Shown: positions 346 to 56,392 of the stretch, in pieces
Position numbering within the stretch: the stretch's first letter is position 1
Layout: each line of letters begins with the position of its first letter
Origin: Camelus dromedarius
Lineage: Eukaryota
DNA: 64,000 nt
NCBI RefSeq assembly: GCF_036321535.1
Contig: NC_087436.1
Span: 13,268,001-13,332,000, forward strand
Direction: 5' to 3'
Position numbers and translations under genes: made by a program
The notes under the pieces: model-generated
The model's database searches: none
Told to the model about the DNA's origin: nothing
Seen by the model: the letters and a program-made list of their open reading frames with translations, nothing else

Positions 346-812
346 CATGGTCTCCACGCGAATGTTTTCTTGCTCCTTACTTCCCTCTGGCTCATCAATG
401 GCTCCCCTCCATCGTCTCCCTACAGCCTTAATTCAGCTCTTTATTCTTGTGTCTCTACTTTTCTCCATCGGAAAACGCCAGCCCTACCTAATAAGGGAGA
501 TATAAGTCCTGGCCCTTGACTTTTTCTCGTGTCTTATAAGCCAGCATCTTAAGCTTTGGTGAAATGATGATGGAAATTTTTTTTTTTTAATTTTGGCTAA
601 TTTTTCCAGCAGAGAAGGTGCAAAGGGTGAACCCTGCTATCACAAAGGAGCAGGGGAAGGGGGGTGCAGACTGTTAAGGTCCAGCTTCGTCTCACCACCG
701 GGAAGGGCTACACCCAGTTTCCTCATATCCCACCACAGTTAAATGTTCATTTTCCTCCCAAGGAGAGTCCAAAACAGCCTCAGGTAGAGAAGGAACATAC
801 CCCCTGTTAAAT

Positions 813-1365
813 TGTTAGGTAGTTAGACAAGTGGGGGCACATGGTAGGGAAGGTGCAGGAGAGGGAGGCTGGTCTGGAAGATGGTGTTGTGCCCACCTTC
901 AGCATAAAGGGGCTTTACTTCCTCTAAATGAGAGCCAGCAGGAAGCCAGTTAGACCCTGACAACTGCAACTGTGCAGTAGTGACAAGGACCTAACCAGAC
1001 ATGACCCAGTGCTCACTGTAATATAATTAACACTGTGATTTAGGTCCCCCCATGGGTTTTTCCATGTGCATCATGGGTAAGGACATGCACAAAAGGGGAC
1101 AAGCGTGACCAAGCACTCTGAGGGCAAGAGCCATCAACCAATCAAGAGACCACCTCTAAGTGAAGGTGTGAGAGAAGGGGGCAAACAAAGACCACTGCTA
1201 CCCGCCCTGGGATCAGCCCGCCTCCCGTCCTTGAAGGTGTGCTTTCCTTTTGCTAATAAAACCCTTGAAATCTTCTGCTGCACAACGCTTCCATCTCCCA
1301 TCAGAATGCTTATCTTTCGGGTAAGACAAGCAGTGGGGTCTTTCCCTTCCCCTTTTGGGATAACA
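813..1365 (+). mobile_element. ERV1-type LTR (553 bp) followed by a tRNA-His primer-binding site
   Basis: TGTTA...TAACA inverted termini, CCAAT at 1138-1142, AATAAA at 1255-1260, PBS-like TGGTGCC starting 3 nt after the end. Confidence 0.85.
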
Positions 1366-1368
1366 TCT

Positions 1369-1407
1369 TGGTGCCTTGACTCAGCTTCGAACCAAGGTTG
1401 CTGCTGC
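1369..1407 (-). other. Copy of the 3' half of mature tRNA-His(GUG) including CCA (extended PBS)
   Basis: TGGTGCCTTGACTCAGCTTCGAACCAAGGTTGCTGC vs reverse complement of mammalian tRNA-His TGGTGCCGTGACTCGGATTCGAACCGAGGTTGCTGC: 32/36 identical, two mismatches are CpG-decay type. Confidence 0.85.
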
Positions 1408-1765
1408 TCTAGTGCAGCCCTGGTGGAGGACTACACCTCCTGTTAAATGACTTGAGAAATAGCAAGCCCAGAAGTTTTGTTGTTTCTGATCCAGTTTATA
1501 TGTAAAGCCACCACACTAGCTGAAAAGAAGTTTGTCCATATCCTCATATCTGGGAGACGGCGGCCTTAGACTGTTAATTTTTAATCCCTCCCTACTGTTG
1601 GCCCAGGGTAAAGAAGAGACTCTAATCTGCTACAAACAGAAAGAGGAAGGGGAGAAATAGAAACAGGAGAGGACAGGAAAGTGGTTTTTGAAGAGAATGT
1701 GTAACAGATATTGGAATCTCTTCCCTAATTACTTCACACCTCTGATCATTAAAGAAATATTTATT

Positions 1766-7745: not shown

Positions 7746-9128
7746 CTCGCCCATCTGTAGAATGCATTGCAATTTAATCAGAAACTCTGAAGCGGGCAGG
7801 AGGGAGAGGCATCCTTTCTCCAAGTTCCCATGTGGGTCGTCTTGTCCTAGCAATGGGGGGAGGGGGCAATGCAGAGTGTCATTCCAGAGATTTTTAGGCA
7901 ATATTCTTTCTAGGAATTCACTATATGGATCTATGGGCAGATATTAACTTCTCAAAACATAGCAGCGAGGGTGAGCATTGAGAAGGTGGCAGAAGGTTTT
8001 CTATCTGGGATTTCATGAATGGGAAACACAAGTCGTGGGAAGGAAAAGTCTAATTCAGAGCCCAGCACAGCAAGGACCAAAAAATCACCCCTGCATCTGA
8101 CCCTGCCCTTCTCCGCATTGTTCCTCAGCCTTCTGTCTTTTCGAAATTGGGGAATGGTAAGAACTTTTTACAAAATGTCCATTGTAGGCTCAAATATTTC
8201 AGTTTGGTCTACAGAACGTTGTCTTTTTCTACATCTAGATTCTCTTTAAGTGAGAGAGTTAACCCAAGCATGCAAGTGTCTTGCAGGTCAGTTGCCGTGG
8301 GTTTCTGCCAGCTAATAGCTCATTCCTGCCCATCCCCTTCTCCTTCTAGAAGGCAGCTGTGAGATACGACCTCATCGCCCAGGACTCAAACCCCAGCCTG
8401 CAAACCTGCGTGGTACCCGAACGCTAGACACTCTACCAAGTGCTAGTTTTAACTCTGCTTTCAGCAACATATTTTGAATTATAGCTCTGAAGCAGAAAAG
8501 AAAATTCTGCTTCATCTCTGCCAACCAGTATTGAAATTAGGTATGTGCTTTCCAAATGTAATAAAATAAACTGCCTTCCCTTCTAGTCGGAAAAAAATTC
8601 CATGAAGCCATTTTTGCCAAAACCTGAATTAAAATCGGCCCAGGAAGAGACAGTCTCTAGAAATAGAGGAGAAAAACAACCCTTTTGAATGTCACATAGC
8701 CTTTAAGTTTGACCTCTCAGAGTGCCACACTGCATTTAATTTTAGTAAAAATGTACTTACTTACACATGGAGGGAGGCTTTAATTTACAGACTCCTTTTG
8801 CAATGAGTAGGGCAAAAAGTGGAAATAGTAGGTCAGGCTAGAGACAGTCAAGGCTTTTCCTGCAGATGGACCCTGCCTCTCACTGGCCTTGGTTACTGAT
8901 TCACTTGTATGTGACTCAACCTTCCTGAATCCCGGATTTCCCATGCATAAAATGGAGATAAAATTGTGGTGAAGATTAAACTTTGACACAGAGTTTGCCC
9001 AGAGTAGACCCTGAAGGAATGAAGATTTCTTTCATTACCACCTTTCCAGCCACCAGTCCTCCATTAAATCTATAAAGGTCTCCAAAATCAGTATGTATTT
9101 AGTAGACTCTGTGTATGTGTGTGTGTTC

Positions 9129-9262
9129 ATTATTCTACTTCCCAGAGATAACCGCTCTTGATATTTTGGTGTTTTCAGTCCGCGCGCACACACACACACA
9201 CACACACACAAAATCAATACACCAAAATATCAAGAGCAATTATCTCTGGGAAGTAGAATAAT
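9129..9262. repeat. 44-bp inverted repeat (42/44) around a (CG)n(CA)n spacer
   Basis: Arms 9129-9172 and 9219-9262 are reverse complements except for 2 adjacent positions. Confidence 0.95.
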
Positions 9263-9816
9263 TCACAATTTTTTCTGTCTCCTTTGTCATTTTTTAATTT
9301 GCTAAATTTGCCATCATTTTAAATGGCGATGTACATTTCTAAAAGCTAGTTTTTAGCAAAAATCACTGTGTAGATACAGCTTCTTTGGGAAAAACAAAAT
9401 CCAGTTTTAAATATTGAGAGTTGTAAAAAAAAATAATAACTGAGAATTAGAAACGGCTTACCCCAAATTTTCAATTATCTGTGGAAGGAAACTGAGGACC
9501 AGAGAGACCATTTCATCCGAAGATTCCAAGCTGAAGTGAGGTTGGAAACCACTTCCTGGTGTGACTGGTACCCCAGAGCTCCCCAGCCTGTGAGCATAAA
9601 TGAGCTGGCACTTTGACCCTAAGTGTTCTGCTCAGTAATCCCAACTATTAGATGTTGTCCCTGTTCATTGATTCTACTGATTTGCACAGAGTTGTACATG
9701 GAACATTAAGTGATCTCTATAGTGGGCACCAAATTATTTGACATGTGTACAATTTATATTAAGGGCCTGGCCATCCCTACTTCTGTCAGAGGCCCAGAAA
9801 TGGGAGGCTGAGAAGC

Positions 9817-21900: not shown

Positions 21901-23402
21901 TTTATATTAATAACTGCTAATTAAAAGGCTATTAGTCAGAGACAATAATAAATAATGAACTCTACAAGAAGCAAATGCCAGAAATAACCTTGCAGGTTTT
22001 GGCCAAAAAAAAATTGGAAAACTTATTAAAACAACTATTTTTCTTATTAAAAACAAATGTTTTACTGAGCTTACAATGAGAGGAAGAAATGAATCTATAA
22101 ATAGGAAGATAAAACAGGGAGGATAAAAAAGTATTTTCCTATTTTTAGGAGCTAACTAATCCACTCCTGCTCCCATGGAAGCAAAAGAACAAGGGAGAGG
22201 TGGGGCAGAGGGCCGAGGTGAAAAGCAGCTTTTCCGATATGAAAAGAAGCCACCCCAGCAATGTTTGAATTCAAGGATCTCAAGGACTAGTTCTCAGGAA
22301 AGCCTTTTTCTCCCCCCGCAGGAAAAATGAGCGAACGCCATGCTGTGTTCCTTTTCACGACATGAGATATAACGTTTGAAATCTTCTGTCAGATGTTTTT
22401 AGGGATGGAATTTTAATTCATTCTCGGTGTCCAATGGAAAACCTTGAAAAATAAGCAATTTAAGATTGAAGGTGCTGATATGTCCAGTATTTTTCGTCAC
22501 TGCCCTTTTTATAAAGTAATAAAAGAATTATCTAAAAACAGAATCTTGGGAGGCCAGGCATTCTCGTTTTCCTATGGCTCGCTCTCTTCAGATTGGCGCC
22601 CCCATCCCTCTGCATCACCTCCATACTGACTTTCATAGTGAGAATACTCCAATTTCAGGTCTCAGAAAAAGCAGAAGTTGGGGTTTTTTGAATCTATTTG
22701 ATCCTCAGCTTTCCTAGCTGGAAAATATGAGAAATGGCCACCTTAGTGACCACCCTCCTAATATTTGTGATTCTGTGATTTCCTGTAAAGGTGGCAAATG
22801 ATATGAACTCAAGGCATGGCTTGTCCTGATGAGACAGAGGCTGCTGAGTAAGTGGCCGTCTGCTCATTCCTTCCTCCTCGGACTCCAGGGTCAGCTCCGT
22901 CTCTCACCAGGATGCCCCCCAGGCTGCCTAGAAAGACCCCTTAGGAGCTGGGGTAGCCTGGTTCTGCCGAGCTAATGCTTGGAGAGCGCAAGGACCAGAA
23001 GAGGTGTGCTCCCACTACCGGCAAGGTGGCCGCCCCTCTCGCCCACAGAGATCCCCCACGGAGGCCGGGATCCCCTCTGCTCCTCCAGACTCCTCCTCGC
23101 TCCCTCACACTACTGCCTGCTCGGCACCCCGCCTTGCCCCACCGGCAACACCCTTAACTCTTAGTTCCCCGCGAATAATTTCTTTGTTGGGTGTTATTAT
23201 AGGTGTGACTAAACCCCAAGCTTCCTGTTCTGCCTTGTGACTCTTAGCAGCCTCTTCAACAGTGGTTGGTGAGTTTTTGCTTTTCTCTTCTGAGCTTTCT
23301 GCTGTCTGGACAGCCTGGAGCAGTGGGGGCGGGGGAGTGGGGGGGATGGGGGCGAGGGGATTCCCTCCTAGGACAGAAGAGGGGGGTGATAGAGTAGTTC
23401 TG

Positions 23403-23835
<433 letters not shown>

Positions 23836-55872: not shown

Positions 55873-56392
55873 TGTTTTGAGTCCAAACTCGTTCTGTTTG
55901 CCACACAACAGGCCAATAAATTGGGAGATGAGGTGTTGGAGCAAGGAATAATGACTTTATCAGAAAACTGGCAGACCGAGGAGATGGGAGACTAATGTCC
56001 TGGAGAACCATTTTCCCCCAAGTCAGAATTCAGGCTCCTTTTATACTACAAAGGGGAGGGAGAGTAGTTGGTTGTTGCAGACTTCTTGGTATCAAACTCC
56101 TTTGTTTTTGCAGCTGTCCGTGTAGGTCAGGTCATGGTGTCCCTCTAAACGTCCAGCAAGACAAATGTTATTTTCTATCTTGCAAGTTTTTATCTTTATA
56201 TGAATGGGAAAGTGTTAATATCTTTAAAGGACAAAGCTTTGAGAATGGGCTCTCCTGTCTATTTCAGGCTCTAGGCAACATTCTTTTACAAAAGCTGCAG
56301 AACCAGCATGACTGAGCACAGGAAACAGAGCCCCGGGTTAGAGCCAAAGGAACAGATCTAATATGGAATCAGATTTGTTCTTACCTATTACA
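55873..56392 (-). mobile_element. ERV1-type solo LTR (520 bp)
   Basis: TG...CA ends, exact 4-bp TSD AAAG (55869-55872, 56393-56396), minus-strand TATAAAA near 56039-56045. Confidence 0.85.

Follow-up and report, generated by a model that had tools for sequence, protein, structure and literature searches.

An endogenous retroviral LTR followed by an over-long copy of its tRNA-His primer: a candidate fossil of aberrant replication and integration

Why would an endogenous retroviral LTR be followed by a double-length copy of its tRNA primer and stand inside a long flanking duplication? This question is raised by a locus near the start of a 64,000-nucleotide stretch of Camelus dromedarius DNA, hereafter the window, to which all coordinates given without a contig refer. 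The original prediction, made from the window alone, described an LTR at 813-1365, a TCT spacer and a complement of tRNA-His that matches at 32 of 36 positions (1369-1404), or 34 of 39 when extended to 1407, and comparison with the genome's own tRNA-His genes gave the same figures. The parts of the locus are listed in Table 1. The locus is real, lies well above chance and is best read as the fossil of a replication-integration error; no function is implied.

Table 1. Features of the LTR locus and its flanks (window coordinates)
Feature	Position	Strand	Description
Left duplication copy	791..812	+	Adjoins the LTR start exactly
LTR, full	813..1365	+	TG...CA ends, AATAAA at 1255; old multi-copy ERV1-like family with a tRNA-His primer
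Spacer between LTR end and PBS	1366..1368	+	TCT, unprocessed U5 end
PBS, ordinary 18 nt	1369..1386	+	Complement of tRNA-His 76-59 including CCA, 15/18
Over-extension	1387..1407	+	tRNA-His complement from A58 to G40 (1387-1404, 17/18), possibly to C38/G37 (1406/1407)
Filler, origin ambiguous	1408..1426	+	Could include tRNA copy rich in errors as far as 1417, older duplicated sequence starting at 1415, or both
Right duplication copy	1427..1448	+	Pairs with 791-812

An old ERV1-like LTR family

Searches of 2.3 Gb of the genome in 171 contigs return 1348 candidate copies of the LTR, the best 39 other copies being 81-84% identical to it. The best 29 copies, which were fetched, place the family ends at the same TG (813) and CA (1365), except for a few in which a terminus is mutated or its position less certain. 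The window LTR shows a mean identity of 83.4% to these 29 copies, which are 83.5% identical among themselves, both figures coming from a set that is biased in consisting of the best matches. Since the LTR is about 17% diverged from its relatives, its insertion is old, presumably tens of millions of years at the neutral rate that we assume. The TSD of the family is 4 bp, with a mean flank identity of 0.75 at 4 bp versus 0.26 to 0.39 at 3, 5, and 6 bp, and at least three of the four TSD bases match in 21 of the 29 fetched copies. None of these 29 relatives carries a His PBS (the best candidates match at 6-11/18), and a shared interior is also absent from them. Twelve of the 40 best LTR matches, the window copy included, lie in G000:C1:7.6-14.9 Mb, and another six cluster in C13:43.4-45.5 Mb; regional mutation rate, insertion bias or an artefact of the search might account for this.

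A His PBS is found behind related LTRs at three loci, L049, L057, and L061, the last of which is 80% identical to the window LTR over its full length. A match to Gag_p30 (E value of 2.5e-7) is present in one of the four fragments searched of L063, a member of a sister family that has R/U5 alone in common with the window LTR. Because this sister family, with the same R/U5, combines a His PBS with Gag_p30, sequence similarity places the LTR group with the gamma-like ERV1 elements that use a tRNA-His primer; for the window's own LTR family no coding interior turned up, the gag evidence being that of the sister family. The start of the LTR appears to resemble MER48/HERVH48. With the HERV-H/F-like ERV1 elements that have a His PBS, the group shares the common tRNA-His PBS and the 4-bp TSD, as well as gamma-type Gag_p30 in the sister family, whereas the PBS of normal members is 18 nt long, unlike that of the window copy.

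The window also contains a second, unrelated solo LTR-like element with TG...CA ends at 55873-56392; there is no other match within the window. The TSD of about 4 bp that had been ascribed to this element is present as an AAAG/AAAG duplication.

A double-length copy of mature tRNA-His

A sequence pattern taken from the window matches the window itself and nine tRNA-His(GTG) genes, and no others; ARAGORN agrees with the gene calls at all seven loci scanned. The template was mature tRNA-His, because none of the seven genes that were read encodes CCA at its end, whereas the window copy includes it. The 18 nt past the PBS match the tRNA at 17 positions (p = 8e-10), and three of the four mismatches in the whole 36 nt fall at CpG sites of the tRNA. 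Position 1387, opposite A58, is the correct T. The copied tRNA is the cognate one, in the position and orientation of the PBS. Rfam and ARAGORN searches at the tRNA piece gave no match.

The end of the copy is blurred, since position 1405 mismatches the tRNA and a GCT run at 1400-1408 could represent slippage. Counting from the 3' end of the tRNA, C38 faces 1406 and G37 faces 1407. A loose tRNA register can be followed to 1417 (39/49), in which four positions of the 5' anticodon stem match but six of the nine at 1405-1413 do not; the likelihood ratio for a tRNA origin of 1405-1417 ranges from 0.07 to 12, depending on the assumed error rate.

More ordinary identities were tried and rejected. 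A regular solo LTR is ruled out by the presence of the PBS and by the flanks, AAAT to the left and TCTT to the right, which do not form a 4-bp TSD. The 5' LTR of a truncated provirus is ruled out as well, the 18-nt PBS being followed by tRNA sequence and not by viral leader. The right flank gave no ERV-internal match when compared by BLAST with the fetched loci, and the leader position of eight sister loci showed no consistent alignment with 1387-1476, although L049 and L061 do align there. Finally, a tailless tRNA retropseudogene made by L1 is ruled out by the 3' part with CCA and by a duplication that encloses the whole LTR. Tailless retropseudogenes (PMC5322556) likewise lack an A-tail, carry a long flanking duplication and consist of a partial tRNA copy whose end is close to a loop. 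However, they are L1-made, 3'-truncated 5' parts of tRNAs, whereas the window holds a 3' part with CCA at the PBS position of an LTR.

Absence of the over-extension from the related copies tested

The relatives tested do not normally carry the 36-nt tRNA complement; its regular presence in the family was what the original prediction had named as fatal to its reading. Among 13 matches to the LTR end plus TGG are seven related LTRs, three of which have a His PBS (14-16/18) and then match the tRNA at 4-6 of 18 positions beyond it. At 19 gag-leader loci of the sister family, the His PBS is recognizable in 17 (13-17/18), and the match beyond the PBS is 0-5/18 in all 19. The next six letters of the tRNA complement, TCGAAC, follow the PBS in none of the 91 PBS-pattern matches (41 in the control); the match nearest to the tRNA continuation failed on follow-up, and the next six letters are not those of the tRNA in six further PBS-bearing candidates from the same set. 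When 1261-1420 was used as a query, in which the over-extension occupies positions 127-144, none of the best 39 other matches aligned past query position 114 of 160. In this comparison, L061 is the sole PBS-bearing copy that matches the window LTR over its full length, and the sensitivity for old copies is limited: the window's own PBS is absent from the 91 PBS-pattern matches, and the tRNA-His gene search likewise missed the window's own tRNA piece. As far as tested, then, the over-extension appears not to be a family trait, and a single copy was found.

The tRNA-His gene search yielded the nine genes, one full-length decayed copy, and six partial copies, all of which are 5' halves without CCA that end at G36/G37. 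The spacers of the relatives are 4-7 nt long and pyrimidine-rich; a pattern that joined the LTR end to a His PBS through a fixed 3-nt spacer matched the window and seven unrelated places. The genome-wide search that had been proposed for further loci of this kind, carried out with an LTR end followed by the complement of any tRNA T-loop, stayed at the chance level (11 matches versus 5 in the control); this generic search demanded exact identity and would pass over old copies, the window's included. The one T-loop match that was fetched is not an LTR junction, as judged by BLAST against the loci in hand, and the other 10 were judged from the table.

Two of the PBS-bearing loci have structures of their own. 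L061 (G000:C30:21552758-21555779, minus strand) contains a full LTR of the same family, a His PBS, and about 60-85 nt of leader, followed by apparent host DNA with no viral interior in 1.5 kb; its best flanking repeat, 15/22, is not convincing. It is possibly a second aborted integrant, or else a deletion. L049 (G000:C1:90658033-90661053) contains, at about 1340-1620, R-U5, a His PBS, and the short leader of a related ERV with an A-rich tail. It has a flanking direct repeat of about 17 nt, lies inside L1-like sequence, and looks like an L1-made, processed copy of a truncated ERV RNA.

A 22-bp duplication around the LTR

The 22-mers at 791-812 and 1427-1448 are, as first reported, identical at 18 of 22 positions, with the last 10 exact. 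Among 20000 random anchors, two attain 18/22 and one combines that score with the exact 10. Around the other family copies, none of 34 flank pairs reaches 16/22, the maximum being 15. The divergence of the two 22-mers (18%) is close to that between LTRs of the family (17%); since four differences in 22 are what 17% divergence predicts, the duplication can be as old as the insertion. The sequencing runs recovered for the locus were all near-identical carriers of it, and contigs from four of them, placed at 80% likeness, were swamped by other LTR copies and did not reach 1382-1465.

Gapped alignment lengthens the duplication to 775-812 versus 1415-1448, with a nonsignificant p value of 0.09-0.14. 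With such a 38-bp duplication hardly any filler would remain, and a CAG microhomology would fall at the end of the loose tRNA register, which is attractive but not significant. The best nearby template for the filler has a p value of 0.03 among six tests, which establishes neither a template nor a clear microhomology. Short stretches within 695-745 resemble the right 22-mer and, in reverse complement, also the filler (a gapped 14/15 match; p = 0.03, uncorrected for the six tests); they might reflect chance or a templated repair patch. Positions 704-714 resemble the first half of the right 22-mer, an indication of some local internal similarity.

Routes to the observed structure

The U3 end of the locus is exact and its U5 end is unprocessed; the cognate mature primer is copied to double length, and the flanking duplication is long. 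As judged from its sequence, it has the makeup of a one-ended aberrant integrant, with an exact left end, an unprocessed right end bearing an insert, and an enlarged duplication. It is probable that the reverse transcriptase passed A58, that the resulting DNA was integrated by one end, and that host repair made the long duplication. Of the interpretation offered originally, the read-through of A58 on mature tRNA-His and the one-ended integration with a host-made duplication thus stand, whereas the strong-stop size of the integrated DNA and the stall at m1G37 are not established.

The route that we favor, with a probability of roughly 0.5, is that the locus preserves, from a single germ-line event, an ERV replication intermediate that went wrong and was arrested at the second strand transfer, with a complete left end and a tRNA-copy flap at its 3' end. 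Plus-strand synthesis from the polypurine tract would have copied U3-R-U5, passed A58 of tRNA-His, and stopped at about position 40-37. The stop would lie near m1G37, a known block; the copied sequence is there to be read, and from it we infer why synthesis ran through and why it halted. At the second strand transfer, the 18-nt PBS would still pair with the end of the minus strand, allowing the correct U3 end to be completed, and the extra nucleotides, about 20, would form an unpaired 3' flap, so that the plus strand would not be extended into the viral interior. Integrase would then join the good left end, and the plus strand's free 3' end would prime host synthesis on the DNA just upstream of the join, producing the filler and the duplication of at least 22 bp, as suggested by the one-ended model (PMC5041404). 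Against this route stand the single copy, diverged by about 17%, and a flap step that is the authors' own proposal.

Over-copying of the primer and one-ended integration with host repair each have a laboratory precedent. In HIV-1, m1A58 is the main stop for plus-strand synthesis, and minor products end at 55, 54, and 37 (PMC13191261, PMC11251516); the product ending at 37 cannot serve strand transfer (PMC13191261). The over-extended HIV-1 strong-stop DNA, which ends at ms2t6A37 of tRNA-Lys3, likewise passes m1A58 and reaches the modified base 37. In that source, however, it is a product formed in vitro and in mutant cells, neither integrated nor inherited, from another primer with another modification (PMC13191261). 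When integrase inserts just one end, the free viral 3' end acts as primer for host synthesis on DNA close by, often with a long duplication as the result (PMC5041404). The one-ended integrants of ASLV and HIV-1 share with the window an exact integrase end, a host-repaired other end, and a duplication longer than the normal TSD. They differ in being somatic and induced by drugs or mutant ends, with duplications that are often far longer, and the consulted part of the source describes no tRNA copy in them (PMC5041404). The duplications are usually much longer than 5 bp, up to hundreds or thousands of base pairs, and about 22 bp is not among the sizes stated in that part (PMC5041404).

The exact left end, the bad right end, and the long duplication could also have belonged to a full provirus whose U5 end carried the over-extended primer copy and which was integrated by its left end, with later reduction to a solo LTR by LTR-LTR recombination. 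A strong-stop fossil and a collapsed full provirus leave the same structure; the strong-stop size is not separable from the sequence because such recombination would erase the difference. A solo LTR is the usual fate in this family, the 29 best relatives being all without a PBS or shared interior, and a second round of plus-strand strong-stop synthesis, for example, might have been the source of the bad U5 end. In HIV-1, PBS pieces of 2-15 nt are known from 3' provirus-host junctions with intact 5' junctions (PMC2797772) and from 2-LTR junctions (PMC5618025), which thus show the same unprocessed U5 with primer-derived sequence next to a normal 5' junction. However, in the consulted parts of both sources these precedents cover PBS-length pieces alone, and the integrated ones have repeats of 0-3 bp (PMC2797772). 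A provirus of this kind also presupposes that plus-strand strong-stop DNA was made twice, or that the primer was not removed, and that recombination followed later, and we consider it a possible but rather unlikely origin.

The base-exact U3 end argues against any capture without integrase, be it the patching of displaced, single-stranded, over-extended strong-stop DNA into a break or the making of a target-primed copy by L1. Ty1 cDNA is captured at chromosome breaks. Mobilization by L1 has local parallels, since tRNA-His halves and related ERV RNA have been mobilized by L1 in the same genome, and 22 bp falls in the TSD range of 8-35 nt that was screened for tailless L1-made copies (PMC5322556). 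However, the locus has no A-tail, its site (GAGA/AGGA) is unlike TT/AAAA, and the six partial tRNA-His retrocopies represent the opposite end of the tRNA, again without CCA. Such a capture is improbable.

Finally, the locus might be the product of two later events, in which a break deprived a 5' LTR with its PBS of the interior and the 3' LTR, and repair then used a PBS-annealed tRNA-His as template, the similarity of the two 22-mers being older or accidental. L061 shows that remnants consisting of an LTR, a PBS, and a short leader exist in the family, and the resemblance of 704-714 to the first half of the right 22-mer also fits. This sequence of events, which seems very improbable, leaves unexplained a duplication that adjoins the LTR start exactly (2/20000) and is of the same age as the LTR.

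Possible imprint of tRNA modification

Human tRNA-His carries m1A at the site equivalent to A58 as well as m1G37, and many reads stop just before G37 (PMC6675128); m1A can be removed from tRNAs by ALKBH1 (PMC10275265). The correct T opposite A58 is compatible with an unmethylated primer. A stop just before G37 is predicted at 1406, and the observed end is at 1404-1407 (or 1417); by our estimate, roughly 4 of about 57 possible end positions would fit m1G37. The odds that the end of the copy marks a stall at m1G37 are roughly even.

An end point of another kind, which would fit any of the routes discussed above, has a chance slightly below even: the primer may have been the 3' half of a tRNA cleaved within the anticodon loop, or host repair may have trimmed the copy. 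Fragments from the 3' part of tRNA-His exist (PMC6675128), aberrant integration ends are often truncated (PMC5041404), and the register beyond 1404 is ambiguous, with the wide range of likelihood ratios given above. Against such an end point, the predicted stop lies within 2 nt of the observed one. The locus is a single old molecule with a blurred end, which primer cleavage or trimming during repair would also explain, and it is only suggestive as a record of the modification state of the tRNA.

The six tRNA-His 5'-half retrocopies (L092 to L097) all end at G36/G37, a sharp hotspot where m1G37 lies. Flanking direct repeats are seen in most of them and 5' leader-like sequence in some, features that suggest tailless retropseudogenes.

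Significance and minor observations

The need for m1A58 in the plus-strand stop and the host repair of one-ended integration are known from biochemistry and from infected cell lines, and this locus appears to unite the two errors in a single inherited molecule that dates from an old infection of the germ line. The open full-text literature, covered at the level of listings and the openings of abstracts, yielded no account of an endogenous LTR that combines an over-copied primer with a long duplication; older reports describe tRNA sequence in retroviral circle junctions. Taken alone, the locus is inert and no more than a curiosity; it is valuable as a search template, an LTR followed by more than 25 nt of primer complement and enclosed in a long duplication, that can be applied across mammalian assemblies; the distribution of end points across such elements would test which tRNA modifications stop the reverse transcriptases of germ-line ERVs.

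More speculatively, and in our view doubtfully, the locus might be the first recognized member of a rare, recurrent 'primer-overrun' class of LTRs, left by a germ-line ERV that was primed by a tRNA lacking m1A58. If this class exists, the 3' ends of its members would map blocks to reverse transcriptase, in this case m1G37 of tRNA-His, and methylation would be readable from the base opposite position 58. Modification of tRNAs in ancient germ cells would thereby have left a dated record in ERV fossils, which would also provide evidence that hypomodification of the primer aborts ERV replication in vivo.

Elsewhere, the window contains an inverted repeat at 9124-9267, with 52-nt arms that are 90% complementary and a CA-repeat spacer, and a pyrimidine simple-repeat tract, (TTTC)n, of about 430 nt at 23396-23825.
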